Part shown: in pieces, positions 3,323-63,797 of the stretch
How the letters are laid out: each line of letters opens with the position of its first letter
Numbering within the stretch: position 1 is the first letter of the stretch
Source of the DNA: Dehalococcoidia bacterium
GTDB lineage: Bacteria > Chloroflexota > Dehalococcoidia > Lucifugimonadales > G963668185
Reading direction: 5' to 3'
DNA: 64,000 bases
Assembly: GCA_963668185.1 (NCBI GenBank)
Contig: OY764162.1
Span: 852,754 to 916,753 of the forward strand
Program-made: the position numbers and the translations under genes
Notes under the pieces: generated by a model
Told to the model about the DNA's origin: nothing
The model's database searches: none
Seen by the model: only the letters and a program-made list of their open reading frames with translations

Positions 3323-3422
3323 CCCGCCGGGCGCAGTTTCCCATCAAGGTCGGCAGCGCAGAAGGGGCCGCCCGCTGGTCGGCGGTCGGCCCCTCTTCTA
3401 GCTCGGTTTCGGCGCGCGTACC

Positions 3423-5510
3423 CTAGTCCGCGCTGGCCTCCGCGAAGACCGGGCTCTCCGAAGTGATGTACGTGTAGAGCTTGCCGTGCGCGCCGATCCA
3501 GGACCGGTCTGCCACGTGCGCGCTGTCAACCAGGGGCTGGTTGTTCACGCGAAGCAGCGAGCCGCCGCCTCTCTGCACGATCTCCATGCCGGTGTTCGAG
3601 AACACGAAGTCCACGCCGTCGAACGCCGCCGCTCCGGTCTCCTCGCCGCCGATCTTGTCCCTTGAGAACAGCGCGAGCATGAACGGCCTCTTCAGTCTCC
3701 CAAAGTCCACGATCAACTCGTTGCGGTCATTGAACAGGCAGCCCTTGGGCTGGGTCCGGGTGGCCCAGTAGGCCAGTATCACCAGCATCGCGAGGACGAT
3801 CACGCCGCCCACCGCTATCCCGGCGATGATGAGCGCCGTCGCCCAGATCGGGAACTCGGCCCTTACGGCAGGCGTCTGCGGCGCGGGCGTCTCCGGCACC
3901 GTCGGATCGTCAAGCTGTAACACTACCGACCCTGTGCCGTGCGTGAAGCTCTGGCCCGCGTAGCCCGTCTCCAGCCAGAACACGAACCTGTGCTGGCCGT
4001 AGTCCGCCGGCGTCAGGAACACATCATAGATCCAGGTCGTGTTGTCCTTGAAGTCCACCTGCGGGACTATGTCGATCTGGCCCTTAGCCGCCGTCGGCCA
4101 CGTGGCGTCGATCGCGATCGCCTCAGGCGCCACAGGGTACGGCTCGTCCTGCACGTGAATCGATAGCGTTCCGACCTGCACTCGCTCGTCCTTGGCAAGC
4201 TCGACCGAGTCCGCCTGCTCGTATCGGAGCGTCGGGAACGCCTGCACCGCGAAGCTCGCGCTCGTGGAGATCGAGTGGTTGTACTCCGGCCACGCCATCG
4301 TCAGCGTCAGGTCGTAGTCCCCCATCTCGGTCAGCTCGGGAATCGTCGTCGAGTGGTAGCCGTCGTTGGCCCTGCGGTCACCGAGCTGGCCCTCGTCATT
4401 GAGCTGGTACATCCGCGAGGAGCCGTCCGGCCCCCTGACCATGCCGAACAGCGTCGTGCCTTCGACGATGGCGTGCTCGTTGTTGTCCAGCACGTGGGCC
4501 ACTACCAGGATCTTCTCGTTGACCGGCGCGTAGTCCCCGATGTCATGCCCAACCGTGTAGCGGTTCTCCGCGTTCTGCCAGAGCGAAGTCCGGCCTGTAA
4601 CCCCCACCGTCTCGATCAGCCACGGCCCCGGCTCCGGCTCGAACAGCCTCATAACCACGATGTGTGGAGACTCCACGACCAGGAAGGAGTCGCTGTCCGT
4701 CCTGGAAATCTCCAGTCCCGCGGGCGTCTCCACCCTCAGGTCGCCGGCGCTGTCCGACTCCTTGAACATGGTGACCGTCACGTGCTGCGTGCCTGGAACC
4801 ACCTTCAGCCTGGAGTTGAGCAGGTCGCCGGACCTGATCGTCGCGCCGGCCAGCTTGCTCATCGACCCTGCGGAGCCGATCTTCAGAATATGGTCGGCCA
4901 CGCCCTTGATTCCATCGTCGGAACCCAGGTGGAACATCTGGCCGTTGGATATCCCGGAAATCTGGGACAGGAACTCAAGCTCTCCAGCCGAAGAGCCGGG
5001 CAGCGCGATGGTGTGTATCGGCCATCCGCTTCCCTGGAATCGGCTCAACGCGGGGCTGATCCGGTCCGCGAGGTTTCCGTAGTCGTTGACACTGCCGCCG
5101 CCGGATAGGAAGTAGACCTCGGATCCGGAGTTGCCGATCTGCTGGCCAATGAAGTTGTGCACTTCGACCAGCGCCTCGAGATGTCCGCCGGGTTGCGGAA
5201 GCCCCCGGCTTCCAATCAAAGCTTGGACCGCGTCATTGGCGGCGGCATATTCCCACTGTGAGATCTCAACAGGGCCTATCACGTTGAGCGGCTCGTCCAT
5301 GGCGACGAACGCGTATCTCCTGTCGGGGTCCAGCGCGGAGGTAAGCGTGTGCACGGAGCGCGCGTAATCCACGCCCTCGTGCGCCGAGTGGATGGCTCCG
5401 CGGTCCACCAACACGACGGCCAGCGACTTTTCGTTGTCCGCTGCCAGCATCGCCGTGGGCACGGCAATCAGCGCAACAGCCGCAATCAAGACCAGAACTC
5501 TTCTCAGCAT
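3423..5510 (-). CDS. Single-pass membrane protein: large extracytoplasmic part (VWA-like, tentative), one TM helix, FHA-like cytoplasmic tail (tentative)
   Basis: 695-aa ORF. The ATG at 5510 is preceded by GGAG; the alternative ATG at 5558 has no obvious RBS. Signal-like 'MLRRVLVLIAAVALIAVPTAMLA' and TM helix 'ALIIAGIAVGGVIVLAMLVILAYW'. The C-terminal ~100 aa '...LLRVNNQPLV...WIGAHGKLYTY' resembles a degenerate FHA domain. Confidence 0.5.
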   Translation of the reverse strand: MLRRVLVLIAAVALIAVPTAMLAADNEKSLAVVLVDRGAIHSAHEGVDYARSVHTLTSALDPDRRYAFVAMDEPLNVIGPVEISQWEYAAANDAVQALIGSRGLPQPGGHLEALVEVHNFIGQQIGNSGSEVYFLSGGGSVNDYGNLADRISPALSRFQGSGWPIHTIALPGSSAGELEFLSQISGISNGQMFHLGSDDGIKGVADHILKIGSAGSMSKLAGATIRSGDLLNSRLKVVPGTQHVTVTMFKESDSAGDLRVETPAGLEISRTDSDSFLVVESPHIVVMRLFEPEPGPWLIETVGVTGRTSLWQNAENRYTVGHDIGDYAPVNEKILVVAHVLDNNEHAIVEGTTLFGMVRGPDGSSRMYQLNDEGQLGDRRANDGYHSTTIPELTEMGDYDLTLTMAWPEYNHSISTSASFAVQAFPTLRYEQADSVELAKDERVQVGTLSIHVQDEPYPVAPEAIAIDATWPTAAKGQIDIVPQVDFKDNTTWIYDVFLTPADYGQHRFVFWLETGYAGQSFTHGTGSVVLQLDDPTVPETPAPQTPAVRAEFPIWATALIIAGIAVGGVIVLAMLVILAYWATRTQPKGCLFNDRNELIVDFGRLKRPFMLALFSRDKIGGEETGAAAFDGVDFVFSNTGMEIVQRGGGSLLRVNNQPLVDSAHVADRSWIGAHGKLYTYITSESPVFAEASAD

Positions 5511-5674
5511 CGCAACATCTCCTGGACCGGCAACTACTACTTCCTGTTTCCTAGACATAACCTAGCCACTGTATAAGAAATAGGTCAACCTGAATTTAGG
5601 TCTCTTTGCGTGTGAAAAAAGGTAGGCAGGCCACGCGCCGGAGGCCCGGAATTCAGGTTTGCGCGGAGCGGCGG

Positions 5675-6202
5675 TTAGCCGCTGGCCAGGAAGTCGTCTC
5701 GACTGCGCTGGGATCGCCGGATCGCGATGGTCACGTACACGCCGCCGCCTATCAGCACGGCCACGAGGCCCGCCCAAAGCGCGGTGCCCAACCGGCCCGA
5801 GTTCGGCTGGTCCTCGGTCACGTCCAGCGTGAACTCGAACTCGCCGACGCCCTCGCCTTCCTTCGAGACGGTGACCTTCAGCGTCCACGTCCCCGTGTGC
5901 CTGATCAGCAGTTCCCCGTGGTAGTGCCTCGGCTCCTCCGGCCTGTTGATGGCGAAGGTGTGGTAGGCCTCCTCGTCCTCCGAACTGGTCGCGAGTATCT
6001 CCACCCGCGCGCCGTCCACCGGCTCGGAGTTCGCGGTGTAAACGGGCGTGACCTTGAAGTGGACAGTGCCGACCTTCGGCTCGGCCGGCTGCACGACCAC
6101 CGTCACCGTGAAAGGCCCGTCGCTGTCCTCCAGCGCCGTCACGCTGTCGTCTTCCGCGTACGCCGGCGCCGCCAGCAGCCACCAACACGCCGCAAGCAGC
6201 AT
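5675..6202 (-). CDS. Secreted/membrane-anchored FixH/YtkA-like Ig-fold protein
   Basis: Start at 'MLLAACWWLLAAPAYA' just after the upstream gene's stop. Beta-rich domain followed by C-terminal TM 'ALWAGLVAVLIGGGVYVTIAI'. Confidence 0.45.
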   Translation of the reverse strand: MLLAACWWLLAAPAYAEDDSVTALEDSDGPFTVTVVVQPAEPKVGTVHFKVTPVYTANSEPVDGARVEILATSSEDEEAYHTFAINRPEEPRHYHGELLIRHTGTWTLKVTVSKEGEGVGEFEFTLDVTEDQPNSGRLGTALWAGLVAVLIGGGVYVTIAIRRSQRSRDDFLASG

Positions 6203-6252
6203 CGCCGCGGCCGTCGCCGTCGCCAGGGATCGGCGGAAAAGGGAGCCGCGCG

Positions 6253-7224
6253 CTACGGCGATGGCAGCACCTCGTTCAGCGCCGACTCCAGTTCCTCTTC
6301 GTTCACGAAGCCCTCGAACTTGCCCGCCACGACGCCGTCCGCGCCGAGCACGAACGTGACCGGCTCCGTCGCCAGCCCCCACTCATCCATCACCGGGCTC
6401 AGCCGCCCGTTGCCCTGGTTCGTGAGCATCTCGTCCGGGTTCTCGTACACCTCAACATGTATGAAGTTCGCGCGCGGCGCGTACCTGTCCTTCAACTTGG
6501 CTATTATGTCCACCTGCGGCCCGCACGTCGCCGTCGAGCAGAACGCGGGAGTCGCAAACGATACTACCGTCGGCAGTCCGCTGCCAACCGCGTCCTCTAT
6601 CGACACCCTGTAAAGGTCCGGGTCAGGCGAAAGGGCGCTCGTCAGCTTGCCCAGTTCCCCCGCCGTGTCCAGCGTCCTGTTCATGCTCGGCGGGACCGTC
6701 TGCCCGATCCCTGGCGAAGAACTCTGCTCCTTGACCGTGACGCCCGTCTGGGCCAGCACCGACTTGCCGTCCTCGTCGGTAAACCGCCCCAGCATTCCCC
6801 AGGGGCCCGCCCGGTCGAACTCCACCAGCGCCGAGTACACGCCCGCGTGGCCCGTCGGCCACTTGCGGAAGACCGCCTCCGCCGTCCGCTCAGCCTGGTC
6901 CTCGCCGCTCAGCGGCAGGTACGCGACATCGATCTTCGACACCCGCACCGGCGCGCGATCCTCGTCGAACACCGCGAAAGCGAACCGGTTAGTCCCGACG
7001 GCTAGGTCGATCGTCACCGGCACGATCCGCAACGGCGCCTCGCCATCCTGTTCGCCCGCTTGGGACGTACCGGCAACCGTCGTCTGCGCAGACGCCGGCC
7101 CGCCCGTCGACGCTCCCCCGCAACCCGCGCCTACGCCGGCCAGGACAACCGCGGCCATGACCAGCGCCGCCGCCGCGCCGCGCAACTCGAAGAACGCCCT
7201 TACCAAGCGCTGCCTCCTCACCAT
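6253..7224 (-). CDS. Thioredoxin-fold (TlpA/redoxin-like) lipoprotein with an N-terminal Ig-like domain
   Basis: Lipobox 'LAGVGAGCGG'. C-terminal 'PTVVSFATPAFCSTATCGPQ...' with a Cys pair in a thioredoxin-like context. Start trimmed to 'MVRRQRL'. Confidence 0.5.
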   Translation of the reverse strand: MVRRQRLVRAFFELRGAAAALVMAAVVLAGVGAGCGGASTGGPASAQTTVAGTSQAGEQDGEAPLRIVPVTIDLAVGTNRFAFAVFDEDRAPVRVSKIDVAYLPLSGEDQAERTAEAVFRKWPTGHAGVYSALVEFDRAGPWGMLGRFTDEDGKSVLAQTGVTVKEQSSSPGIGQTVPPSMNRTLDTAGELGKLTSALSPDPDLYRVSIEDAVGSGLPTVVSFATPAFCSTATCGPQVDIIAKLKDRYAPRANFIHVEVYENPDEMLTNQGNGRLSPVMDEWGLATEPVTFVLGADGVVAGKFEGFVNEEELESALNEVLPSP

Positions 7225-7405
7225 TGCTGCCCATATCCTACATGAGCGCGAACGAAACAGGGTGCGCGGTCGCGCCAACGGCACCGATGACATTCCCCAT
7301 CCTGACAATCAGACGCGCTCTAACCTGACAATTGGCCGTATCGTAATCTGACAATCAGCGCCCTGGACAAGAATCGTCGAAGAGCAGCCACGGCATAGCC
7401 GCCGT

Positions 7406-7435
7406 TTGACAAGACGGCGGTGTTAGTCATACCAT
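7406..7435 (+). promoter_or_regulatory. Possible sigma70-type promoter of the vapBC operon
   Basis: TTGACA at 7406-7411, ~18 nt spacer, then TACCAT-like -10, about 30 nt upstream of the antitoxin start. Confidence 0.3.
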
Positions 7436-7464
7436 TAGCTAAGTTTAACGTAGAAAGGCCTGCG

Positions 7465-7710
7465 ATGGTAACGGTAAACGTCCACGAAGCGAAGACCCAC
7501 CTGTCGCGCCTGCTGAAGCGTGTCGAGGAAGGCGAAGAGGTCATCATCGCCCGGAACGGCAGTCCGGTGGCGCGGCTGGCGCGAGTGGAGCCTGAAGGCA
7601 AGCGGCAATTCGGCGCTTTGAAAGGCAACAAGATGTGGGAGGAGTTGAGCGACATCATCTCCGAGCCTCTGCCGCCGGAGGAGTTGGCCTTGTGGGAAGG
7701 CGGCCCCTAG
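7465..7710 (+). CDS. Phd/YefM-type antitoxin (VapB-like)
   Basis: 'MVTVNVHEAKTHLSRLLKRVEEGEEVIIARNGSPVARL' is a classic Phd/YefM N-terminus. The stop abuts the PIN gene start. Confidence 0.85.
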   Translation: MVTVNVHEAKTHLSRLLKRVEEGEEVIIARNGSPVARLARVEPEGKRQFGALKGNKMWEELSDIISEPLPPEELALWEGGP

Positions 7711-8097
7711 TTGCGGCTGCTGCTCGACACCCATGCCTTCATCTGGTGGGTGAACGGGAGCGAACGCTTGCCGGGGCGCATCCGCCGCGTCATCGACGAC
7801 GGCGCAAACGTTGTATTCGTAAGCGCGGCCTCGGCATGGGAGATAACCACCAAGTACCGCCGGGGCAGGCTGGAAGAAGCCATGCGGATAGCCTCGGACG
7901 TCGCCGGCGTCATCGCTGTCCAGAGTTTCAAGGAGTTGTCCATAACGGTCGACGACGCCGCGCGAGCGGGCGCGCTTCCGGGCCCGCTCCGCGACCCCTT
8001 CGACCGGATGCTCATAGCCCAGGCGCTGTCGCGCGACCTGGTCCTCATCTCGAGCGAGTCCTCCTTCGATCAGTACCGCGTTCGCCGCTTGTGGTGA
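7711..8097 (+). CDS. vapC: PIN-domain toxin VapC
   Basis: 'LLLDTHAFIWW...' with an acidic PIN signature. The TTG start sits directly after the antitoxin TAG. Confidence 0.85.
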   Translation: MRLLLDTHAFIWWVNGSERLPGRIRRVIDDGANVVFVSAASAWEITTKYRRGRLEEAMRIASDVAGVIAVQSFKELSITVDDAARAGALPGPLRDPFDRMLIAQALSRDLVLISSESSFDQYRVRRLW

Positions 8098-8204
8098 GCA
8101 GCCGCCGTACCCGTCCGCCGCCTCCTGCAAGGCCGGCCGGTTGGCGCTCTAGATGGCAGCCATCCAGGGTGTCCGACTTCCCTTTCTAGCAGTAACATAG
8201 ACAA

Positions 8205-11033
8205 ATGACAGTCCGAAACACCGACCCTGAGACAATCCGCGAGGAAGGCGTCAACGTCCTTCTCGCCCAGGCCCTCCGCGCTCACGGTCTGCAGGCCAGG
8301 GCGGAGCGCCGCACGCGCAAAGGCGCGCCCGACGTTCGCGTCGACCTGAAAACCCGCGATAGCTTCGTCCTGGAGTGCAAGTGGGAAGGCGCCGCCGGCC
8401 TCCTCGATACCCAGCTTGATGGCCGCCTCAAAGACTTCCCCGACGCCCTCGGCGTAATCGGCGTCCTCTACCCGGACCGGCTCAAGTTCGAGGAGAACAC
8501 CGACGCCGCTCTCAATACCGCTGACGACCTCAGTTGGTGGCTCCACGGCTCCCGCGGAGTGGCCCTGCCCGAACCGCGCGTCGTCAGAACGGGCTCGGTG
8601 TCCGCGCTCGCCGACCATCTACGAACGATGCCGCTGGAGTTGGAGGGCGTGGACCGCGTACTCGCCGCCGCCGGCGCCATCGAGTACGCGCTCGAACAGG
8701 CGGCGGAGCGGGCCGACGGCCACGCCCGGGTGTCCGGTCGAATCGCCGGAATCATCGCCGTCACGGACCAGGAGAAGAATCGCGCCGCCGCCCTTCGCAT
8801 CGGATGCCTCGTGCTTTTCAACGCCCTTGCCTTTCAGGAGCGTCTCGCCGCCGTCAACGGGGAGGTCCCCACGGTCAGGGAGGCGCTTGCTCAGGGCATC
8901 ACAGGGTTGCGCGACGCCTGGCAGTACATTTGCGAACACATCGACTATGTGCCCGTCTTCGAACTCGCGGCCAACATTCTTGATGTTCTCGAGAACGGTC
9001 CGGACTACGTCCGCATGCCGGTGATCGAGCCCCTGGTCAAGGCGATGGAAGAAACGCACAACCTCGAAGGGCACGACCTGTCTGGCCGGCTGTTCCACAC
9101 TCTCCTGACCGATGCCAAGTTCACAGGCGCGTACTACACCTCGGTTCCCGCCGCCGCGCTTCTCGCCCGGCTCGTTTTCCACGGCTGGCCGCCCCACGTC
9201 GACTGGGCAGACCACGAGTTCCCCGCTTCCCTCAACGTGGCGGACCTCGCCTGCGGCACCGGCACGCTGCTGATGGCCGTCGCCTCCGAGGCCGAGCGCC
9301 TTCACAGGACCGCCGGCGGTACGAAGGCCGCCGACCTGCACAAGGCCATGGTCGAGCAGGCCCTGCACGGCTACGATGTCCAGCTATCCGCCATACACTT
9401 CGCCGCCACCAGCCTCGCCATGCTGAACACCGATATACAGTTCGACCGCATGAACCTCTACGTCATGCCCCTCGGAGTGGAAGGCGCCAGCGTGTCCCTG
9501 GGCTCGCTGGACTTCCTGGGCCGCGATGAGGTCCCGGTCCAGTACTCATTAACCGGCGCGGGCATGGGAGTCCCGGCAAAGGATGCCGAAAAGGTGTCAG
9601 GCACAGGACACGCGGGCGCGGCGAAAGGCGAGACCGCCCGCCTGCCGGAGTTGGACCTTGCCATCATGAACCCGCCGTTTACCCGCTCCGTGGGCGGCAA
9701 TCTGCTGTTCGGCAGCCTGCCCCCGGCGGAGCGGCGCAAGCTCCAGAACGAGCTTTCGCGCCGCCTGAAGTCACACCATGCGTCCGCAACCGCCGGTCTC
9801 GGCGCCGCGTTCGTGGCGGCAGCCAGTCCCAAGCTGCGACCCGGCGAGGGACGCCTTGCGCTCGTGCTGCCCGCCACAGTCTGCACCGGCCCGTCATGGA
9901 AGCAGACCCGTGCGCTCATCGAGCGCGACTACGCGCTCGATATGGTGGTCTCCTCACACGATCCGCAACGCTGGAACTTCTCGGACAGCACCGACCTTTC
10001 CGAGGCGTTGCTGATCGCCACGCGCCGCCCCGCCGTTCCCGGCACAGTCGAACGCCGCACCACGTTCGTGAACCTCTGGCAGAACCCCGACGGCGTGACC
10101 GACGCTCACCGGGTGGCCCAGGCCGTCGCCTCTACCACGCCCGCGAAGTTCGAGGAGACGGGCACCGCCCTGCTCGAAGTGGACGGACGGCACATTGGCG
10201 AAGTCCTGTCCATCCCCGAATCGAGACTCAAAGGCGGCAAATGGTCAGGCGTACAGTTCGCCCGCGCCGACCTCACCCGCAGCGCACTAAGGCTTCTGGA
10301 CGACGGCGAAGTGCGGGTCCCCGGCGAGGAGAAGGTGACCAGCGTCTCACTGTGCCCGCTTGACGACCTCGGCCAGATCGGGCCGGACGTAAGAGATGTC
10401 CGGGATGGATTCGAGCCGACAGACGCCGTGACCGCCTACCCCATGGTTGAGGGAAACGACACTGAGCAGAGGACGCGCTTGGCCACCGGGCCCGACAAGT
10501 ACCTTGCCCCGCTTCCCAATCCCAAGCCCGGTCGCAAACTCAAGCGGGTTGATCAGCTATGGCCCAAGGCAGGCAGACTCCTCATCGCCGAAAGACTGCG
10601 ATTAGGAACAGCTAGAGTCGCCGCAATGCACATCGACGCACCAGTGCTATCTAACGTGTGGTGGCCCGTCAAGGCAGACAGCCGCGCTCTTGAGAAGGCA
10701 ATCGCTGTATGGCTGAACAGCAGCGTCGGCCTGCTTGCCCTGCTGGCGATTCGCAACACTACGGAAGGTAGTTGGATAAAGTTGAAGAAGGCTGATCTAC
10801 GTACGCTCCCCGTCCTCGACGCACGCCAACTCTCCCCAGCGCAGCTTCAAGCCCTAGCAGACCTGTTCGACGAACTCGCCCAGTCCGACTTCGAGCGCCT
10901 GCCAGCCATGGCCCACTGCAAAGCCCGCCGCACCCTCGACAACGGCCTCTCCCGCATCCTGAACCTCCCAGACCTCGCAACCCTCCGCACCCTCCTATCC
11001 ACCGAACCCGTAATCTCCAACCACCGGCTGTAA
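8205..11033 (+). CDS. Fused PD-(D/E)XK nuclease / gamma-class N6-adenine DNA methyltransferase / C-terminal recognition region (Type IIG/IIL-like single-chain R-M enzyme)
   Basis: N-terminal 'APD-x13-ECK'. SAM motif I 'VADLACGTGTLLMAV'. Catalytic motif IV 'IMNPPF'. About 430 aa follow after NPPF. Confidence 0.65.
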   Translation: MTVRNTDPETIREEGVNVLLAQALRAHGLQARAERRTRKGAPDVRVDLKTRDSFVLECKWEGAAGLLDTQLDGRLKDFPDALGVIGVLYPDRLKFEENTDAALNTADDLSWWLHGSRGVALPEPRVVRTGSVSALADHLRTMPLELEGVDRVLAAAGAIEYALEQAAERADGHARVSGRIAGIIAVTDQEKNRAAALRIGCLVLFNALAFQERLAAVNGEVPTVREALAQGITGLRDAWQYICEHIDYVPVFELAANILDVLENGPDYVRMPVIEPLVKAMEETHNLEGHDLSGRLFHTLLTDAKFTGAYYTSVPAAALLARLVFHGWPPHVDWADHEFPASLNVADLACGTGTLLMAVASEAERLHRTAGGTKAADLHKAMVEQALHGYDVQLSAIHFAATSLAMLNTDIQFDRMNLYVMPLGVEGASVSLGSLDFLGRDEVPVQYSLTGAGMGVPAKDAEKVSGTGHAGAAKGETARLPELDLAIMNPPFTRSVGGNLLFGSLPPAERRKLQNELSRRLKSHHASATAGLGAAFVAAASPKLRPGEGRLALVLPATVCTGPSWKQTRALIERDYALDMVVSSHDPQRWNFSDSTDLSEALLIATRRPAVPGTVERRTTFVNLWQNPDGVTDAHRVAQAVASTTPAKFEETGTALLEVDGRHIGEVLSIPESRLKGGKWSGVQFARADLTRSALRLLDDGEVRVPGEEKVTSVSLCPLDDLGQIGPDVRDVRDGFEPTDAVTAYPMVEGNDTEQRTRLATGPDKYLAPLPNPKPGRKLKRVDQLWPKAGRLLIAERLRLGTARVAAMHIDAPVLSNVWWPVKADSRALEKAIAVWLNSSVGLLALLAIRNTTEGSWIKLKKADLRTLPVLDARQLSPAQLQALADLFDELAQSDFERLPAMAHCKARRTLDNGLSRILNLPDLATLRTLLSTEPVISNHRL

Positions 11034-11109
11034 GGAAGGCATGGCGCCCCAACATTGACCGCCCGCCGATGGCGCGCGTATCTTTGAGTAGCAGCGTTGG
11101 CTCCCCACG

Positions 11110-11394
11110 TTGAACTGGAGGACGACTCAATGGCGGCCCGAACGTACAAGCCGGGAGAGACATCAGCCTTGGGCGAGGCAATCGATCGAGAAGCGAGTCA
11201 AGTCCGCAAGAGTCGGGGACTTCGTTGTCATCGACGTTGAGACCGGCGACTACGAAGTCGCCCCCGGCGACGCGATAGCTACTCGCCGGCTCTTGAGGCG
11301 AAGGCCCGAAGCGGCAACTTACGCCGTGCGAGTCGGCCATCGCGCGGCGTACAGCCACGCAGGCGGATTCCGCGTGCCCGTCCAAGATGATTGA
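11110..11394 (+). CDS. Small hypothetical protein of the kind that precedes retropepsin-like aspartic protease genes; start uncertain, possibly decayed
   Basis: 94-aa ORF with only a TTG start. An ATG at 11130 opens a different frame that closes after 36 codons. The 3' end overlaps the next ATG (ATGATTGA). Confidence 0.3.
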   Translation: MNWRTTQWRPERTSRERHQPWARQSIEKRVKSARVGDFVVIDVETGDYEVAPGDAIATRRLLRRRPEAATYAVRVGHRAAYSHAGGFRVPVQDD

Positions 11395-11521
11395 GGGTGA
11401 AGTTACAGAGAACCGCCAAGCCGTTGTCGCAGTCGACATCATTGACGGTCAGGGCCAAGCCCGCACCGTGGACCACAGACGAAATCCCTGCTACGTTTCG
11501 TACACCTCCCCTATCGACTAG
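11387..11521 (+). pseudogene. Truncated clan-AA (retropepsin-like) aspartic protease gene, first ~30 codons only
   Basis: 'MIEGEVTENRQAVVAVDIIDGQGQARTVDH' matches the usual N-terminus of these ~130-aa proteins. It stops before the expected DTG-type motif and runs into the 65-bp repeat at 11501. Confidence 0.45.
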
Positions 11522-11565
11522 ACGGTAGGGCCGAGACCGCCCTTGCGGCGGTCTCTGTCTTTGTC
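11501..11565. repeat. 65-bp repeat, copy 1, containing the hairpin GAGACCGCC-CTTG-CGGCGGTCTC
   Basis: Near-identical to 11632-11696 ('...cccctatcg...ggtagggycgagaccgcccttgcggcggtctctgtctttgtc'). Confidence 0.85.
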
Positions 11566-11631
11566 CTGCCGAGTACGTGCGGCAAGGGCATCACGCCCTT
11601 GACCGGAGTCCCAGTTGACGGTACCATTGAG

Positions 11632-11696
11632 CATACTTCCCCTATCGCTTCGCCGGTAGGGTCGAGACCGCCCTTGCGGCGGTCTCTGTCTTTGTC
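11632..11696. repeat. 65-bp repeat, copy 2
   Basis: Direct repeat of 11501-11565 with the same perfect stem-loop. Confidence 0.85.
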
Positions 11697-11708
11697 TGAG
11701 ATTAGCGA

Positions 11709-12338
11709 TTGATCACCAACCTCTACATCGACGGGTTCAATCTTTACTACCGTGCCCTTAAGGACTCACCGTTCAGATGGCTTGACCTGCGCAAGCTAGC
11801 CGCTAACCTCTTCCCAAACGACAACATCCACAGGGTCTGCTACTTCACTGCCAGACTTGACGCTCGTCCAAGTAACCCAGGCCAACCACGCCGGCAACTG
11901 ATCTACCTGAGAGCCTTGGACACCCTGCCGAACCTCGAAATTCACTACGGTGCCTTCCGGTCCGGCACACAGCGCCGCCCACTGGCTGAGCAGGTCTCAG
12001 GCCTGCCGAGACACGTTCTTGTAAGAGACTCGGAAGAGAAGGGATCGGACGTGAATCTTGCCACCCGTCTCTTGGTGGACGGCTTCAACGGAGAGTACGA
12101 ACAGGCGGCGGTCGTATCCAACGACGCGGACTTCGCCGGCGCCATGCGATATGTGAGAGACGGCCTAGGCCTGCGCGTCACTCTCGTCAACCCGGACTCC
12201 AAGAGAGTCAGTTCTAAAGAGTTAGCAGAGGCTGCGACTTACGTAAAACGACTTTGGAAGAGCCACCTGAGGCGCAGCCTGCTTCCCGATACCCTCACTG
12301 ACGACATCGGTACCATCACCAAGCCCCGCGGCTGGTAA
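11709..12338 (+). CDS. NYN-domain (LabA/DUF88-like) putative ribonuclease
   Basis: 'ITNLYIDGFNLYYRAL...', 'GSDVNLATRLL' and 'AAVVSNDADFAGAM' match the NYN acidic motifs. TTG start. Confidence 0.7.
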   Translation: MITNLYIDGFNLYYRALKDSPFRWLDLRKLAANLFPNDNIHRVCYFTARLDARPSNPGQPRRQLIYLRALDTLPNLEIHYGAFRSGTQRRPLAEQVSGLPRHVLVRDSEEKGSDVNLATRLLVDGFNGEYEQAAVVSNDADFAGAMRYVRDGLGLRVTLVNPDSKRVSSKELAEAATYVKRLWKSHLRRSLLPDTLTDDIGTITKPRGW

Positions 12339-12524
12339 CGCACGCCGATTCCGCGCACCCGCCCAGGACGTTGAGGGCGAAGCCGCCGCAAGCCGTCGCC
12401 CCACACCCCCACATCGACCGCGCCACATTTCGACCCACCCTCTCCCACTCAGCACCCAGCCGGTAACCAAAACGTGTTCATCCAAACCCATCCAGTCCCA
12501 CCCAGTCCCACCCGTTCCCTTCAC

Positions 12525-12635
12525 TCCGACCCCACCGTAGGGCCGAAACCCGCGCGCCCTAACCCCGCCGTAGGGGCGCTTCGCGAAGCGCCCTTCCCCC
12601 GCTCGCCCTGAGCCCGTCGAAGGGGACCGTCAAAC
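12525..12635. repeat. Cluster of GC-rich palindromic interspersed repeats (families A and B)
   Basis: Family A: GGGGCGCTTCGCGAAGCGCCC at 12573-12593. Family B: GCCCTGAGCCCGTCGAAGGGG. The same units recur at 14395-14525, 29626-29655, 59027-59046 and 60559-60585. Confidence 0.85.
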
Positions 12636-12877
12636 CATAAACGCACCGGCCCCTTCCCTTCTGCGAACGAGCGTGCTATTATAGACCCATGATCGCAATA
12701 ACACACATCCGAGGCGTACCGCAGCGCGGCCCAGCGCTGGCCCTCGCGCTCATTCGAGCCGCCCTCCTTGGCTGTCACAAAGTGTCACATCTCGTACGCA
12801 AATTGGCTTATGCAGGCATCATTTCGTACACATTTCGTCCCACGAGCGAACGCTCCCCAGATACGAAAAGTGACAGA

Positions 12878-13342
12878 ATGTTACGGAACGTGACACATCT
12901 TTCAAAAGCCAGCCGCCGCGCTCGCCCCACCGTGCTACGCCTGCCCAGGTACCACCCGCCCACGAAGTCCGAGCGGCCGCCCGGCGAGCGCCTGCTGGTG
13001 TACGACGGCGAGTGCGGCTTCTGCAGCCGGTCCGCCGCGTTCGTGCGTCGAAGGGCGCGCGTGCCGGTGACGCTCGTGCCGTTCTCAGAGCTCGACGGCT
13101 GGCCCGTGCTAACGACGCTGGACCCCGAGCAGGTCGCCCGCAGCTCCCACTACGTCACGCCCGAAGGCGTCGAGTACCACGGCGGCGAGAGCATCACCCG
13201 CTCGCTGCGCCTCGTCCCGTTCGGCGCAGCCGCCGCGCCCCTCGATCTGTGGGGCCTCGCCCTGCTGCGCGAGTTGCTGTACGCGCTCGTCGCCGGAAAC
13301 CGCTCGCTCCTCTCAGTTCCGTTCACCCTGACCCCGCCGTAG
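12878..13342 (+). CDS. DCC-family thiol-disulfide oxidoreductase (DUF393)
   Basis: 'LLVYDGECGFCSRSAAFV' is the DCC motif. Start taken at the ATG at 12878 within the longer ORF. Confidence 0.65.
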   Translation: MLRNVTHLSKASRRARPTVLRLPRYHPPTKSERPPGERLLVYDGECGFCSRSAAFVRRRARVPVTLVPFSELDGWPVLTTLDPEQVARSSHYVTPEGVEYHGGESITRSLRLVPFGAAAAPLDLWGLALLRELLYALVAGNRSLLSVPFTLTPP

Positions 13343-13403
13343 GGTAGTACAATAACGGCATCCTGTAGCCTCAGTGCCTGCCAGATCACAGCAAGGAGCG
13401 GTC

Positions 13404-14393
13404 ATGGAGCAACGGCAATTCGGAGACAGCGACCTCTACACCTCCCCCATCGGTTTCGGCACCTGGGAGATGAGCATCAACTCATACGGCCACATCGACG
13501 TGGACGAGGCGGCGGAGGCGGTCCGCCAGGCTATCGATCACGGCATCACCCTATTCGACACCGCAGAGGTGTACGGCCCGTACCACTCTGAAGAGCTCCT
13601 GGCAAAGGCCCTCGGCGACAGAAGGAAGGACATCGTCCTCGTCAGCAAGGTCGGCTTCGATTACGACGACGAAGGCAAGAACCTGGGTCGCAACTCCAAG
13701 CACGACCACGTGATCGAGCGCACGGAGGGCTGTCTCCGCAGGCTGGAGACCGACTTCCTGGACCTGCTGCTGATCCACTGGCCCGATCACGACACGCCCT
13801 TTGAAGAGACGATGCGCGCCCTGAACAAGCTGAAGGACGACGGCAAGATCCGCCACTACGGGGTGTCGAACTTCACGCCCGAAATGATGGACGAGTGCGA
13901 GAAGTACGGCCACCTCGCCGCCAACCAGGTCGGCTATCACATGTTCGACCGCCGGATGGAGTCGGCAGTCCTGCCTTACTGCCTGGACAAGAAGATCGGG
14001 TTCATGGCGTACGGCTCGCTCGCGTTCGGCCTTCTAGCCGGCGCATTCACCCCGGAAACGACGTTCGGCGAAGGCGACTGGAGAAGCGGAGGCCTCGCGT
14101 TCGAACTGCCCCTGTTCCAGGAAGCGGAGTTCGCCAAGGAACTCAAGGTCGTCGAAAGGCTCAAGACCATCGCCGCCCGTTACGACAGATCGGTCGCGCA
14201 GCTTGCCATAGCCTGGACCGTCGGGCACCCGGCAGTGACCGTCGGCCTCGTCGGCATGCGCAACGAGCGTGAGCTAAAAGAAAACGTAGCCGCCGCCGGC
14301 TGGGAGCTGGACGCCGAAGTCCGCGAAGAGATAGACGCCATCTTCACCGAAGAAGGCGTCCCCACCCACACAGACACGCCCCAAGCCATCTAA
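13404..14393 (+). CDS. Aldo/keto reductase
   Basis: ATG preceded by AAGGAG. 'IGFGTWEMS...', 'FDTAEVYG' and 'LLLIHWPD' are AKR signatures. Confidence 0.9.
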   Translation: MEQRQFGDSDLYTSPIGFGTWEMSINSYGHIDVDEAAEAVRQAIDHGITLFDTAEVYGPYHSEELLAKALGDRRKDIVLVSKVGFDYDDEGKNLGRNSKHDHVIERTEGCLRRLETDFLDLLLIHWPDHDTPFEETMRALNKLKDDGKIRHYGVSNFTPEMMDECEKYGHLAANQVGYHMFDRRMESAVLPYCLDKKIGFMAYGSLAFGLLAGAFTPETTFGEGDWRSGGLAFELPLFQEAEFAKELKVVERLKTIAARYDRSVAQLAIAWTVGHPAVTVGLVGMRNERELKENVAAAGWELDAEVREEIDAIFTEEGVPTHTDTPQAI

Positions 14394-14394
14394 A

Positions 14395-14525
14395 GGGAAA
14401 CCCCGTTCGCCCTGAGCCTGTCGAAGGGCCGAATTCCGTCCACCCTGACCCCACCGTAGGGGCGCTTCGCGAAGCGCCCTTTCCCCGTTCGCCCTGAGCC
14501 TGTCGAAGGGCCGAAGCGCCCCTCC
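14395..14525. repeat. Cluster of palindromic interspersed repeats (B-A-B)
   Basis: TTCGCCCTGAGCCTGTCGAAGGGCCG occurs twice, at 14406-14431 and 14487-14512, flanking GGGGCGCTTCGCGAAGCGCCC at 14459-14479. Confidence 0.9.
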
Positions 14526-16268
14526 CTAGCCGAGCCCGCTCACCGTCACTGTGACGATGTTCACGCCGTGATACTTCTGGTGCCGCACCGAAGACGCGTA
14601 GTGCCTCAACAGCCGGAACGAAATCTCCCGCCCGTCCGTAATCTCCGGAGCGTCCCCCAGGTACGCGAGCTTGTCTTCTAGGTTCTCGCCCTCCGTGCCG
14701 GAGATGAACTCGAGCTCGGCCTCGCCGGCGCCCGCGCGGGCCAGCACGACGAGCCGGCCCGCCCTGCCCTCTTCTTCTAACGCCCCGTCCTCCGACTCCA
14801 AGCTTGTGAGCGTCTCCTCGCCGACAAGTACCAGCCGTTCGGTCGAGGCCGCGTCCCAGCCGGCCCTCGAAGCAAAGCCCTGCAAGAACTCTCCTAGCCT
14901 CGGCAGGGAGTCCGGAGTCAACTCAACCTCCAGCCGCTGGCGGCGGGGGGCCGTTAGCTCCATGAACACCATCATGATGATCGCGACCAGCGCGCCGGAG
15001 GTCATGCCGTTCCCAAACAGCACTCCGAGGAAGCCCTCTCCAAGCAGGTCAGGGAAGATCCACTGGTTCTGGAAACCGACTCCGATCCAGAACGCCAGCC
15101 CCGTAACGGCGGCCTTCCTGTGATCGACGCCGTCCTGGATGACGATCCTCATGCCCTGAACGAACAGCAGCCCGATCAGCACCGTTATGTACGCCGCCGC
15201 CACCGGGCCCGGGATGGCTATCAGCAGGGCCGTGAACTTCGGGAAGAACGCCAGCGCCAGGAACAGGGCGCCAATGACCACTCCGACGCGCCGGGCCCCG
15301 ATGCCCGTGATCTCGGCCAGCGAAATGCTGGAAGAGTAGGTGGTGTTCGGCAGCGTCCCGAGCAGGCCGGACAGGAGGTTTCCCAGCCCGTCCGCATTCA
15401 ACGCGCCCTGCACCACCCTGAAGTCGGTCGCCTGCGGGTTGCGCCTCGACACCCTCTGGATCGCCACTCCGTCGCCGACCGTCTCGATCGCGCCCACCAG
15501 CGTCACCACGATGAATGCCGGCAGGAGCGCCCCGAACGTGGCGTCCGGCGTCACGTCAAGGCCCGGCCAGGATCCAAAAGGAACGCCCACCCACGGCGCT
15601 TCGGCGATCTGATCGACGTCGTACAGCCCGAACGGCGCGCCCACGACGCAGCCCACCACGATGCCGATGACCGGCGACCACAGCCGCAGCGCGGGAGGGC
15701 CGCGCAACACGAGCACGGCCACGGTCACTAGCGTGGCCAGCGCAGCGGCGGGAGCGGCGGCCGTCGATACGCCTTCCGGGGTCTCCCTCAGCGTGTCGAA
15801 CACTATCGGCATCACCGTCGCCGCGATCAGCATGATCACCGTGCCGGACACGACCGGAGTGAAGATGCGCCGGAGCAGCGAGAGCCGGGCGGCCATCGCG
15901 AACTGGAAGATCGACGATATGACGATCAGGCTCGCCATAGTGGACGGCCCGCCCTCAACGAGCGCCGCGACGCACACCGCGATGAACGCGCCGGACGTGC
16001 CCATGATGAGCACGTGCCCCGAGCCGATCCGGCCGACGCGGACAGCCTGGAGGATCGTCGTGGCCCCGCTCACTATCAGCGCCGCGAACACTCCCCATGA
16101 CAGGTAGCCGTCCGGCTGGTCCGCGATGCGGAAGACGATGACCACCGTCAGGACGACGGGCGCAACGATCAGCAGCGCGGCCTGGAGACCCGCGCCGATG
16201 GCTACCGCGTGCGGCGGTATCTCATCCGGCTCGTATCGTACGTTGTCGCTCACGTTTGCCGATGCCAT
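14526..16268 (-). CDS. NCS2 (xanthine/uracil/vitamin C) family permease with a ~135-aa cytoplasmic C-terminal extension
   Basis: Multi-TM ORF with purine-permease-like segments ('...LPNTTYSSSISLAEITG...'). A soluble tail follows the last TM helix. Confidence 0.7.
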   Translation of the reverse strand: MASANVSDNVRYEPDEIPPHAVAIGAGLQAALLIVAPVVLTVVIVFRIADQPDGYLSWGVFAALIVSGATTILQAVRVGRIGSGHVLIMGTSGAFIAVCVAALVEGGPSTMASLIVISSIFQFAMAARLSLLRRIFTPVVSGTVIMLIAATVMPIVFDTLRETPEGVSTAAAPAAALATLVTVAVLVLRGPPALRLWSPVIGIVVGCVVGAPFGLYDVDQIAEAPWVGVPFGSWPGLDVTPDATFGALLPAFIVVTLVGAIETVGDGVAIQRVSRRNPQATDFRVVQGALNADGLGNLLSGLLGTLPNTTYSSSISLAEITGIGARRVGVVIGALFLALAFFPKFTALLIAIPGPVAAAYITVLIGLLFVQGMRIVIQDGVDHRKAAVTGLAFWIGVGFQNQWIFPDLLGEGFLGVLFGNGMTSGALVAIIMMVFMELTAPRRQRLEVELTPDSLPRLGEFLQGFASRAGWDAASTERLVLVGEETLTSLESEDGALEEEGRAGRLVVLARAGAGEAELEFISGTEGENLEDKLAYLGDAPEITDGREISFRLLRHYASSVRHQKYHGVNIVTVTVSGLG

Positions 16269-27400: not shown

Positions 27401-27477
27401 GTGACAACCGCAGACAACAGGCCGGTCAGCGCGACCCGCAGAAACACCGCGCACAGACTATGGGGTTTGGGGAACAT
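24469..27477 (-). CDS. Giant lipoprotein with GLUG-motif repeats and Ca-binding-like DxDGDG segments; internally duplicated
   Basis: Lipobox 'VVTACLASCGEE'. Many 'GGLVG.N.G.I..SYA.G.V.G' (GLUG) units. 'DSDGDGLIE...LEQL.A(L/I)RYDLDG(N/D)G' occurs twice. The ORF's N-terminal extension was trimmed because it runs across a tRNA. Confidence 0.75.
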   Translation of the reverse strand: MFPKPHSLCAVFLRVALTGLLSAVVTACLASCGEEAQSGELSQPTQTPTPNEISAQLTQTPAPIEISAQPIQTPAPMSTCTVTHTYAPTPTPLSVDTSTPAPMPALPTGPATSYDSDGDGLIEVTSLEQLDALRYDLDGNGRADFSSDAQAYAAAFPEVAAAEGCEGCAGYELARSLDFQDADNYASGAVNPAWISGDGWPPIAPHFVYGSPPDTSSGYKAVFDGSGHTISNLYARRILTEADRARLGADDRKAVGLFGVVDKAGILRRVGMIDVDVEVKNYEISGGLVGLNAGRIYDSYVTGSVAAVYGAGVLTGENHGTIQASYTKGKVSGKAMVGGLSGYSAGAVTASYAKVEVSGRSEVGGLVGYNHGEIMTSYAAGRTSASEERAGGLVGASLGTAVASYWDTQVSGEGSPVSSGYTLGISGFTTSELQRPTQAAGIYVLWGADIDNADGDYNLDTGREDYWDFGDSAQYAALKADFDGDGVATWWEFGDQDRDVPSPPPSVSAEPSPAPASTAPLPTLVYPEGLDSDGDGLIEICNLEQLYAIRYDLDGDGIVDENSAASAPVYEAAFPTVSPTGLCDGACQGYELGRALDFREGGDYASGVVNESWTAGSGWLPIGSGGMGFNTAFDGNGYAISGLYINRLTVLDSPEGVGLFGVTGGSSSIRNTTLAEVQAVGLAKIGGLVGVNNGLIIDSHVGGHIGFVDGTGGGLVGLNHGEVAASSSHVSVSGGGHAAGGLVGRSDGKVRASYAAGRVSGGGHVGGLIGSNGGEVSAAYATGGVYAGWDVGGLIGSNGGEVSAVYATGNVCGSQSIGGLVGWNSQNSAISNSYATGSVIGLDMAGGLVGYNSGVMSGSYDPPGKVVSSYSIGAVSGRDFLGGLIGENGGEVVIGLWDSETSKQAKATGRGDADGAQGATTAELQSHTAGEGIFAKWGDDLWDFGNAGQYPALKADMDGDGVATWQEFGEQSRVVPEQGAEADLSGVQPGFFPSQSTPAWCD

Positions 27478-27500
27478 CAAGCCAAAGCCTTCGTTGGGGG

Positions 27501-60372: not shown

Positions 60373-60399
60373 GAGGGTGGGGGAGTGGATAGTGGTTGG

Positions 60400-60887: not shown

Positions 60888-63797
60888 CTAAGTGATCAGT
60901 CGTGCGCCTTTGGGACGCCTCTTGCCGCCGTGGACGGACGGTTCAGCGCACCACTTGGCGGCCAAGCGGCGTACGGCACGGTAGGTGTCTTCGTCGAAGC
61001 CGAGCAGGTCACAGACCACGCGCCGGTCCAAGTAGGCGCGGTTTGGGTCGGCGTCGGCGAGGTAGGCGGGCTTGAGTTCCTTTTCCCGGAAGTCGTCGAA
61101 GATGTTTTCTGCGGTGCGGAGTTGCTCGTCGGTGAGGGTGCGGAGGTCAAGGACGGGTAAGGACTCAATCGCGAATATGGTAGTACGTCCTCTGCCGTCA
61201 TGTTGTCTACTGGCACACCACCAGTACAATAGTAGTCCCAACGTAGAGTTACACCATAATGTGAACGCAGCATCAAATCTGGCATCATCGAAGAGTATGT
61301 TCGGCCAAGCCGTTCCGCCTATAGCCTTCTCGTCTGTTAGTGCGGCAGCGAGAGGTTGCGAAGTAAAACGGAAGTCAAGAGTAAGGTGAGATCTGCTGGC
61401 AGTAGCCCAAAGTTTGCCAGCTCTCTCCTCCATGCCAGGCTTAACTAACATTTGAGAGTCTGGCTCGCAGACCATATATGTTTCATTCTTAGCATTGTGG
61501 TTCCACAAAGCCGGGTATGTGGCCGTTGGGCTTGCGGCTTGTTTAGTGAACGGCGCTGAGTGCGCATTGCTCACAAAGAATTGGTGGTCTAATCCACGTT
61601 TGCCAACTTGATTCAAGAATGTCATAGCTACTTTGGATCGTTCCGGTCTTGCAGGTAGCCAAAGCTCACCACCGGTCAGCGAATGTGCGACTTGAGCCAA
61701 GGAGGCGTCAAGTACTCGTCCCGCACCCCATCCCATCTTGAAATCTCCCAATGATGCATCGAGGATTCCTCCCGCGGGAGAGTCTCCGGAGTAGATGGGA
61801 GTTGCACCGTACGGCCCATCTTCAAGGCGGCGAGTTGACGTACCATTCTTGATCGCTCTCGAGAACTCCGACGCTTCCACGAAGCTGGCCGGCCTGGTTT
61901 GCAGTGAAACGAACTTCGCACGGTCATTGGGATCTTCGTCCTTCGTCTTTTTGCGGCCAATGACAAGACATTCCGCCATTCCTGTGTCAGAAGAGAACGA
62001 CATGTCCTTGCCATTGGCTGCAATGCTCAGGACGGTCAAGTCCGTGTACTCGGTTGTCATAAGCTCCCTGAATCCAGCCCAGGATGCTCCGCTGATCGCC
62101 GTGAAAGGCAGGACAAGCGCGACCATGCCGTTCGGGCGCAACTTCCTGTCGGCGAGGGCGACGAAGGCGGAGGCAAGGCCCGCATGGCCGTGATAACAGG
62201 TGTCTCTGGACATCCGCTTCATTCGTTTCGCCATGTCTGATTGGTCTTCTTCCGAGGCGTCAAATGCGGCGAAAGCGGCGGCCAGTGTCCCGGAGTCCGC
62301 GTCTCTGTGCTTGGTGTTGCTTGTGAACGGCGGGTTCATGATGATGAGGTCGAAGCCTTCGTCGGGGATGTCCGCGACGACGTAAGCAGCCGTCTCCTCA
62401 CCGATCCGCCCCGTTCGCTTTGCCGGATCGCTGGTGTTGAACAGCGTCATCGCGGAGGACGACTGGAGCAACTCGAGAGAGCCGATCTTCACGCTGCCGT
62501 CTTCCTGTCTGCCGTAAGGCAGGGTGTACAGGCGCGAACCGTTGAACTCGACTTCCGGGTATGCGCCGGACAGGGTTGCGCCTGTTATGTGAACGGCAGA
62601 TGGCATAACGTCACAGCCGAACAGGACATTCTCCATCATGGGGGCATGAAGCTTTTCCGGGTCGCCGCCGGCGCGCTCGTGGCGCGCGGCGATCTGCTCA
62701 TAGACCGCCGAGAGCAAGGCGCCGGTCCCGCAGGCGAAGTCTCCGACCCGCAGCTTGCCGACAGCCTCAGCGTCCGACCAGTCCACGCCGTCCATCCCTG
62801 CGACGGCGATCCTGGCCAGCAGGGCCGCCGAGGCGGGCAACGTGTAGAAGGTGGCAAGATACTTGCGGTCTGCTATGAGCTTCTGGAAGATGCGCCCCGT
62901 GAGATGGTGAGCGTTCTCAATGCCGGTTGCGTTCACATCTCCAACGGTAAGCTCCAGTGTGCGCAGTACCCTGGCCGCGTAATTAGCCGGCAGTTGTCTG
63001 AGGATGTCTCTCCCTACGGAGAAGATGGGGAAGTAGTTGATTTCAAGGATGGCTGACCATTCGGCAAGCGTTTCCCTCTGCGGATTCGGAACGTCGTGAC
63101 CGCACACCAGATTAAGCGGCCTGATGTTGATCGCGTGTTTGGTCCCGGCGATGCGCTCATGGAAGACCATGGCGTTGGCGATGATGGCGCACGCCATGCG
63201 TCGGGTCTGTGCGACGTTGGCCATTCCGAGCAGGCGGGCAATCACGGCGTTGACGGCTGGTCTCGCAGTGTCTATCTCGTCGAGAATGGCCGCAACCCTG
63301 TCAATGCCCTGCTGTAGCGCGTCCGCGGCAGCGTCGACTGCCTTCTCGGGCACGGACACGAGCTTTACGAGATCGGCCAGATCCTCAACAGAGCCGGTCA
63401 GCCATCCCGACTCCGGGAAGCGGCTGACTCCGGGGGATTCGTCCCTGAATACGCAGTATGAGAGCCGGGCGTCCAATAGTGCGGACGCCAGGTTGTTAGA
63501 GTCTGCAATGGCGTCCGGGTACTTGAGCGCCACGACCGCCTCCACGCTGCGCCGGCCGTCAACTACCTCCAGTCCGAGGCGGGACCTGGCCTCATCTTCG
63601 ACGGTTCGAGCGGGCTCGTACTCTGCTTCAACTATCACGGGCGAGCGGCCGGGCTCTGTGATGACAATATCCGGCTGCAGACCGGGCTTGTCCACGATGG
63701 CGCGGACGTTTTCGGAGCGTACAGTCCACGCGCGCGCCATCGGCTGAAGCAACGCGCCGAGGGCGTTGTTCACGCTAGGCTCGGTCTGACGCGGCAT
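60888..63797 (-). CDS. Second fused PD-(D/E)XK-like / gamma-class N6-adenine methyltransferase / recognition-region protein (divergent paralogue of 8205-11033)
   Basis: N-terminal 'QPD-x13-EAE'. Motif I 'VGDFACGTGALLSAV'. Motif IV 'IIMNPPF'. Same architecture and spacing as the 942-aa protein. Confidence 0.65.
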   Translation of the reverse strand: MPRQTEPSVNNALGALLQPMARAWTVRSENVRAIVDKPGLQPDIVITEPGRSPVIVEAEYEPARTVEDEARSRLGLEVVDGRRSVEAVVALKYPDAIADSNNLASALLDARLSYCVFRDESPGVSRFPESGWLTGSVEDLADLVKLVSVPEKAVDAAADALQQGIDRVAAILDEIDTARPAVNAVIARLLGMANVAQTRRMACAIIANAMVFHERIAGTKHAINIRPLNLVCGHDVPNPQRETLAEWSAILEINYFPIFSVGRDILRQLPANYAARVLRTLELTVGDVNATGIENAHHLTGRIFQKLIADRKYLATFYTLPASAALLARIAVAGMDGVDWSDAEAVGKLRVGDFACGTGALLSAVYEQIAARHERAGGDPEKLHAPMMENVLFGCDVMPSAVHITGATLSGAYPEVEFNGSRLYTLPYGRQEDGSVKIGSLELLQSSSAMTLFNTSDPAKRTGRIGEETAAYVVADIPDEGFDLIIMNPPFTSNTKHRDADSGTLAAAFAAFDASEEDQSDMAKRMKRMSRDTCYHGHAGLASAFVALADRKLRPNGMVALVLPFTAISGASWAGFRELMTTEYTDLTVLSIAANGKDMSFSSDTGMAECLVIGRKKTKDEDPNDRAKFVSLQTRPASFVEASEFSRAIKNGTSTRRLEDGPYGATPIYSGDSPAGGILDASLGDFKMGWGAGRVLDASLAQVAHSLTGGELWLPARPERSKVAMTFLNQVGKRGLDHQFFVSNAHSAPFTKQAASPTATYPALWNHNAKNETYMVCEPDSQMLVKPGMEERAGKLWATASRSHLTLDFRFTSQPLAAALTDEKAIGGTAWPNILFDDARFDAAFTLWCNSTLGLLLYWWCASRQHDGRGRTTIFAIESLPVLDLRTLTDEQLRTAENIFDDFREKELKPAYLADADPNRAYLDRRVVCDLLGFDEDTYRAVRRLAAKWCAEPSVHGGKRRPKGARLIT

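Follow-up and report, generated by a model that had tools for sequence, protein, structure and literature searches.

Here we analyse two long genes in a 64,000-nucleotide stretch of the genome of a Dehalococcoidia bacterium (contig OY764162.1, positions 852,754 to 916,753 of the forward strand, the whole of which we call the window). Our results make it probable that these genes, copy 1 at window positions 8205..11033 on the forward strand and copy 3 at 60888..63797 on the reverse strand, encode solitary single-chain restriction-modification enzymes of the type IIG/IIL kind, and that they belong to a family which carries no name. This architecture had been proposed in an initial annotation, made from the letters alone, and it is now supported by fold matches to BpuSI and then to DrdV, by the PD-(D/E)XK topology of the N-terminal domain, by invariant catalytic residues and by the solitary position of the gene in 51 related loci.

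Copy 1 is an intact open reading frame (ORF) of 942 amino acids, in which nuclease, methyltransferase and recognition domains are joined in a single chain, and copy 3, an intact ORF of 969 amino acids, is its paralogue. Judging from their sequences, both are real genes and not chance ORFs, since each has thousands of homologues, of which the top 120 are of equal length and 64-80% identical. The features that the initial annotation had read in the 942-residue protein were located again by script: namely, a PD-x13-ExK motif (P42-D43-x13-E57-C-K59, nucleotides 8328-8381), methyltransferase motif I (DLACGTG, residues 347-353, nucleotides 9243-9263) and motif IV (NPPF, residues 489-492, nucleotides 9669-9680). 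In copy 3, the counterparts are P42-D43-x13-E57-A-E59 at nucleotides 63621-63674, DFACGTG at 62721-62741 and NPPF at 62325-62336. BLASTP aligns the two proteins from end to end with 28% identity (E=1e-75), and on this comparison they are full-length paralogues; they come from different subfamilies and did not arise by local duplication. The earlier description of the 969-residue protein as a diverged relative with the same motif order and spacing holds over the full length, the PD-x13 spacing being identical, with one correction: the motif ends in ExE in copy 3 and in ExK in copy 1, a glutamate standing in place of the lysine. A scan for sigma-70-like promoters found none directly upstream of copy 1; the only site precedes the gene of the neighbouring antitoxin VapB and is uninformative.

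The AlphaFold2 model of copy 1, built from an alignment of 48 sequences that spans both subfamilies, has a mean predicted local distance difference test score (pLDDT) of 83.8 and a predicted template modelling score (pTM) of 0.78. When this model is compared with the PDB using Foldseek, the type IIG enzyme BpuSI (3s1s) comes first, with E=1.1e-18 and an alignment over the whole chain. Further matches include CamA and M.BseCI, with target-normalised template modelling (TM) scores of 0.66-0.71, DrdV of the type IIL group (E=4e-12), PglX/BrxX of the BREX system (E=8e-12) and enzymes of the TaqI type, while MmeI is absent from the top 50. Along the chain, and with approximate boundaries, the model suggests an alpha/beta, PD-(D/E)XK-like nuclease domain at residues ~1-130 (8205..8594), an all-helical connector at ~131-300 (8595..9104; helices within H132-302), a Rossmann-type methyltransferase bearing motif I and NPPF at 301-625 (9105..10079), and finally, according to its secondary structure, an alpha/beta DNA-recognition region at ~626-860 followed by a terminal helical bundle at ~861-942 (together 10080..11030), all on the forward strand.

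Motif I precedes motif IV and the recognition region is C-terminal, both motifs being invariant in the 48-sequence alignment, and this is the motif order of the gamma-class N6-adenine methyltransferases (Eco57I / N6_Mtase). At the level of domains, as seen in predicted folds and motifs, an endonuclease and a methyltransferase share one polypeptide, as in type IIG enzymes. What is more, the five-domain layout of type IIL enzymes is recovered, both when the secondary-structure map is set against the domain boundaries of MmeI and in the fold match to DrdV; sequence homology to MmeI was not found.

How close, then, are the known enzymes? BpuSI, the best whole-chain fold match to copy 1, has the same order of N-terminal nuclease, helical connector, gamma-class N6-adenine methyltransferase and C-terminal recognition domain, with comparable boundaries (6-174 / 175-289 / 293-579 / 580-876, the connector being 175-289), and the same combination of a glutamate in helix 1 with PD-x(13-15)-ExK, its verified catalytic residues being E21, D60, E76 and K78 of a PD-x15-ExK motif (PMC3185434). 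It differs from copy 1 in that the structural alignment has 13% identity, in that its nuclease domain is ~170 rather than ~130 residues long, and in having NPPY where copy 1 has NPPF. Moreover, BpuSI works with separate companion methylases, whereas none adjoins copies 1 and 3. The type IIL enzymes MmeI (5HR4) and DrdV (7lo5/7lvv) are like the present ones in having solitary genes with no companion methylase. In particular, MmeI has a five-part layout (1-155 / 156-300 / 301-620 / 621-825 / 826-919, with 156-300 as the spacer), the boundaries of which are nearly identical to those of copy 1 (PMC4833311). In MmeI, however, the nuclease motif is D70-x9-E80-x-K82 and not PD-x13-ExK, and neither MmeI nor DrdV is related to the family at the sequence level.

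The initial annotation had suggested AlphaFold as a check on the N-terminal nuclease fold. Modelled alone from 40 sequences, residues 1-138 reach a pLDDT of 91, and the order of elements, H13-26, E30-33, E44-47, E53-60, H61-77 and E83-89, gives in the model the alpha-beta-beta-beta-alpha-beta topology of the PD-(D/E)XK core. The best Foldseek matches, each of them weak, are Hjc (the archaeal Holliday-junction resolvase), the SPARDA nuclease, NucS/EndoMS, VRR-NUC, Cas4-family proteins, lambda exonuclease and HincII, nearly all matches being to PD-(D/E)XK nucleases; a weak sequence match to Vsr (PF03852) covers residues 12-62. In the model, D43 (nucleotides 8331-8333, forward strand) lies at the start of strand 2, immediately ahead of E44-47, E57 (8373-8375) and K59 (8379-8381) lie in strand 3, and E13/E14 lie in helix 1; together with E34, these are the putative catalytic residues. 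The pattern of conservation bears on this directly. Namely, E13, E14, E34, D43, E57 and K59 are each invariant in 120/120 relatives of the ExK subfamily, and so are E6, N10, E29, D43, E57 and E59 in 120/120 relatives of the ExE subfamily, which speaks for selection to preserve an active site that binds metal. Homologues at 35-43% identity, as well as plasmid-borne ones, retain the signature REE..N / PE / PD-x13-14-E-x-(K/E/R).

As for the sequence libraries, all Pfam matches of copy 1 fall below threshold and are to generic methyltransferase models. Copy 3 matches Eco57I (PF07669) above threshold with E=2.3e-8, and N6_Mtase (PF02384) is above threshold in some homologues at ~40% identity; both matches agree with the earlier claim that the proteins are DNA methyltransferases and not RNA or protein methyltransferases. 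In NCBIfam and PADLOC, the methyltransferase core has weak matches to the models of MAD2, PglX, MTase_II and type IIG enzymes, far under the cut-offs: for MAD2 (NF047738, E=1.6e-6) the score is 26.7 bits where the cut-off is 720, and for NF033454 it is 18.8 bits where the cut-off is 900, in both cases over methyltransferase motifs only. MmeI-family Pfam domains were found in none of 48 family members at E<=0.1. In searches of PDB chains with both proteins and a 48-sequence profile, the best profile match was motif I of PglX/BrxX (8c45, E=2.6e-4), with TaqI and BsaXI at E>0.3. Because these matches to PglX, TaqI and BsaXI are at the level of motifs, the family cannot be placed from sequence alone. 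By the results from the libraries and the PDB, the family is therefore, as far as sequence goes, a lineage of DNA N6-adenine methyltransferases remote from every characterised single-chain enzyme, and by sequence neither protein belongs to the MmeI family or to that of BpuSI.

The family is large. A word-indexed search with copy 1 returned >2,000 matches, and the best 120 of these are 70-79% identical, ~941 amino acids long, unnamed and nearly devoid of precomputed Pfam domains. The subfamily of copy 3 is equally populous at 64-80% identity and carries the Pfam domain Eco57I, and its members are labelled 'hypothetical protein [Dehalococcoidia bacterium]' by NCBI. Exhaustive scanning of 1.84 billion cluster representatives with HMMER yielded 3,051 clusters at E<=1e-3, of which 943 reach E<=1e-30; note that this family size of ~3,000 refers to clusters at 50% identity. 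Among genome contigs, nearly all close relatives lie in metagenome-assembled genomes of Dehalococcoidia/Chloroflexota, some with isolate names (SB066x, Plut) that we take to denote bins of sponge or coral symbionts, and the family is one that has multiplied in sponge-type Dehalococcoidia. Farther away, a few relatives at 36-40% identity occur in Fervidibacter, Planctomycetota and NC10, and homologues at ~36% identity are found on plasmids of cultured Proteobacteria, namely pSTJ1 of Sulfuricystis multivorans and pUSP4 of Aminobacter sp. MSH1, the latter being annotated as an 'N-6 DNA methylase'.

The genome itself, with a size of 2.78 Mb, holds four full-length paralogues and one C-terminal fragment. 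Besides copies 1 and 3, these are a paralogue 76% identical to copy 1 (copy 2, C1:2729273-2732089), a fourth, ExE-type paralogue (C1:1144639-1147281) whose methyltransferase core shares 46% identity with that of copy 3, and a 99-residue fragment (G000:C1:261280-261576) that matches the C-terminus of the 969-residue protein at 43% identity and probably survives from a fifth copy which has decayed. The presence of two diverged copies within 64 kb, which had initially been called unusual, is consequently nothing special, and genomes of the lineage carry 1-6 matches each. The fourth paralogue is followed on its own strand by an ORF of 292 amino acids with no Pfam match (L004 429-1307, corresponding to G000:C1:1143567-1144445, minus strand), which starts 37 nucleotides past the paralogue's stop codon.

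Copy 1 and copy 2 have diverged unevenly, being 92-94% identical at methyltransferase residues 300-400 and 56-60% identical at residues 700-900, and the faster divergence of the latter region is the pattern one would expect if recognition specificity had diverged; the C-terminal recognition part, with its helical bundle, is where the pair differs most. That these paralogues arose by local duplication is ruled out on three grounds: their flanks are unrelated, their GC content at third codon positions (GC3) differs (0.80 and 0.62, respectively), and some genes in other genomes resemble copy 1 slightly more (78-79%) than copy 2 does (76%). Across the order, 16/41 genomes have matches, and these are mostly the larger genomes of 2.4-3.7 Mb. 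The ExK subfamily is absent from three genomes of the same genus, only one of which has an orthologue of copy 3 (80%). Several relatives are broken, and in one Dehalococcoidia genome (L020, OZ241751.1) two copies of the ExK subfamily stand in direct tandem, at 4766-7897 and 8001-10817, with 63% and 65% identity to the window protein. Such a patchy distribution, along with broken and tandem copies, amounts to the flux that is typical of restriction-modification genes.

The surroundings of copy 1 can be read in the same three genomes of the genus (G001-G003), in which DNA corresponding to window 3400-7246 and 12931-16249 is conserved, while 7247-11058, i.e. the VapBC pair and copy 1, is swapped for other cargo. 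Since related genomes carry different cargo between conserved flanks, the site (window 7247..12930, holding VapBC, copy 1 and an NYN nuclease gene) is a variable hotspot, and one that repeatedly receives single-chain methylase or restriction genes. Namely, in G001 the same spot (L064 4127-7480) encodes a different, 1117-residue single-chain protein with N6_Mtase and Eco57I domains and the specificity domain found at the C-terminus of Type ISP enzymes (Type_ISP_C), and in G003 it encodes a pentapeptide-repeat protein. The first ~330 residues of the 1117-residue protein have no assigned domain. The sole part of the spot common to the same-genus genomes is orf94 (11110-11394, 94 amino acids, no Pfam match), which has two further paralogues in the genome at 68% and 35% identity.

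Upstream of copy 1 on the forward strand, Pfam identifies a Phd/YefM antitoxin (7420-7710) and a PIN toxin (7711-8097), which are toxin-antitoxin neighbours and not part of the enzyme. Clustering of ORFs in the 51 related loci revealed no consistently adjacent gene. As the ORF caller took some antisense ORFs in this GC-rich DNA, VapB, VapC, NYN and orf94 were rechecked by tblastn, and VapB, VapC and NYN were found beside the gene in none of the 51 loci. The VapBC pair is likewise missing from the copy 1 site in the same-genus genomes, and VapBC and NYN are chance neighbours. Of the defence-island-like context that had been proposed from these neighbours, what stands is that the site is a variable hotspot, while the linkage itself recurs nowhere else. 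Copy 3 adjoins BacA, a major facilitator superfamily (MFS) transporter and a region rich in hairpin repeats, and on either side of the other paralogues lie housekeeping genes (DinB-family, DUF1989, RraA-like and peptidase S51). No methylase or specificity gene adjoins copy 1 or copy 3 in the window, and the claim that the genes lack such a companion extends to the paralogue loci and to the 51 related loci, in all of which the gene is solitary.

If these are indeed enzymes of the type IIG/IIL kind, how would they work? A short asymmetric site would be clamped jointly by the recognition region at the C-terminus and the gamma-class methyltransferase, with the target adenine flipped into the NPPF pocket. 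In host DNA, this adenine would be methylated at N6 using S-adenosylmethionine, and in unmethylated foreign DNA the N-terminal PD-(D/E)XK domain, held by the connector, would cut at a distance from the site, which in the case of MmeI is 20/18. Cleavage would probably require two enzyme molecules, and, as no second methylase is present, the host would probably be protected through methylation of one strand, as in MmeI. By analogy with the characterised enzymes, then, we infer methylation, cleavage and its distance from the site, a requirement for two sites, and protection through a single strand. The four paralogues of the genome would represent independent acquisitions with different specificities.

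Would the evidence be equally well explained if the proteins were solitary DNA methyltransferases and nothing else? In this case, the N-terminal domain would be silent, DNA-binding or regulatory, and the proteins would be orphan epigenetic or protective (anti-restriction) methylases on mobile DNA. We regard this as unlikely, but a number of observations do count in its favour. Many homologues of ~750-790 amino acids begin at query residue ~190, i.e. without the N-terminal domain, and the PD motif is gone from a single homologue, P0181; methylation alone is thus viable for such relatives. The ExE subfamily, furthermore, has no canonical lysine, and the plasmid homologues lie in regions with annotations of the plasmid-transfer type (PRTRC proteins around the pSTJ1 homologue, a zincin-like metallopeptidase and a lytic transglycosylase around that of pUSP4), where a protective methylase could be expected. 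Two other points weigh against the restriction-modification reading itself: the fold matches of the N-terminal domain are not individually significant (best E=0.015, TM 0.38-0.52), and resemblance in sequence to characterised enzymes is marginal, the searches of the PDB by sequence and profile having found none of MmeI, BpuSI and DrdV, with MmeI and DrdV giving no match at E<=10.

Against a role in methylation only, the acidic and lysine residues are invariant in 120/120 relatives of each subfamily, as noted above, and ExE in place of ExK occurs in BamHI, which is an active enzyme. What is more, a distribution that is patchy and tied to a hotspot, together with a recognition region that diverges faster, suits genes of defence better than it does methylases with a housekeeping role. 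For these reasons, we favour single-chain restriction-modification enzymes over methylases with an idle extension.

A different possibility, which we consider quite improbable, is that the family, in which ExK and ExE members occur together within single genomes, forms a branch of its own among single-chain restriction-modification enzymes and has a minimal nuclease module resembling Hjc. Its ExE subfamily would use another chemistry (for example nicking, or a BamHI-like site with two glutamates), or its paralogues would cooperate, for example as mixed nuclease dimers. If true, either of these would amount to a new rule for how one chain cuts both strands.

It is very unlikely, in our estimate, that the proteins serve instead as the methyltransferase subunit in a defence system of several genes, akin to PglX of BREX, MAD2 of MADS or DrmMI of DISARM, with partners encoded elsewhere in the genome. 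The nearest sequence matches, in the region of motif I, are indeed to MAD2 and PglX/BrxX, PglX structures are among the Foldseek matches, and PglX/BrxX has a related architecture of methyltransferase plus recognition region. However, the scores lie far below the curated NCBIfam cut-offs and come from the methyltransferase motifs only, no neighbour is conserved in 51 loci, and the paralogues sit among housekeeping genes. PglX/BrxX and MAD2 proteins need partner proteins for defence, whereas copies 1 and 3 have no brx or mad partner genes, and neither PglX/BrxX nor MAD2 is known to carry an N-terminal PD-(D/E)XK nuclease domain. As for RNA or protein methyltransferases (HemK/PrmC-like or ribosomal RNA m6A-like) with unrelated extensions, the weak matches to PrmC (E=0.01) and to MTS and Methyltransf_25, Pfam families of small-molecule/RNA methyltransferases, are sub-threshold and reflect shared SAM-binding motifs only, while the whole-protein fold is that of BpuSI, CamA, M.BseCI and DrdV and the families above threshold are those of DNA methylases, which makes this explanation scarcely credible.

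Several other features of the window may be recorded here. Between orf94 and the NYN gene lie two 62-nucleotide direct repeats (window 11504-11565 and 11635-11696), 90% identical and 131 nucleotides apart, each including a 9-base-pair GC-rich hairpin (GAGACCGCC-CTTGC-GGCGGTCTC) and then a T-rich tail. Such a pair may represent terminators in tandem, or else a small repeat element of the dispersed kind. Just downstream of copy 3, window 58980-60860 is a dense cluster of palindromic repeats resembling repetitive extragenic palindromes (REP-like), for example CCTTCCCCAGCAGACTGGGGAAGG in four copies, plus other repeat families, and the 436-residue ORF at 59062-60372, which has no Pfam match, is probably a product of these repeats. 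Short repeats similar to those of this cluster (window ~14402-14512) occur in dozens of copies in one of the same-genus genomes (G003). Elsewhere, the window contains an insertion sequence (IS)-type rve integrase/transposase gene (21373-22431), a 1070-residue GLUG-motif protein (24469-27681), a protein with RCC1 repeats of the eukaryote-like type (27931-29547), and a 769-residue ORF with no Pfam match (17756-20065) that may be foreign, its GC3 being 0.55 against ~0.85 for host genes.

Beyond their value for engineering and annotation, the enzymes of this family are ordinary defence genes of a well-known kind. Among restriction enzymes, none are easier to re-engineer in specificity than the single-chain ones of type IIG/IIL. 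An easy experimental route is offered by the cultured, plasmid-borne homologue of Aminobacter sp. MSH1, of which substrain DK1 has pUSP4 and substrain MK1 does not, and no methylome is reported in the same source (PMC8460812). Since Pfam, NCBIfam and PADLOC name the family weakly or not at all, censuses of defence systems in sponge and coral symbionts probably under-count it. Characterising a single member would annotate thousands of genes that now stand as 'hypothetical protein', and could add new recognition specificities to those already known.

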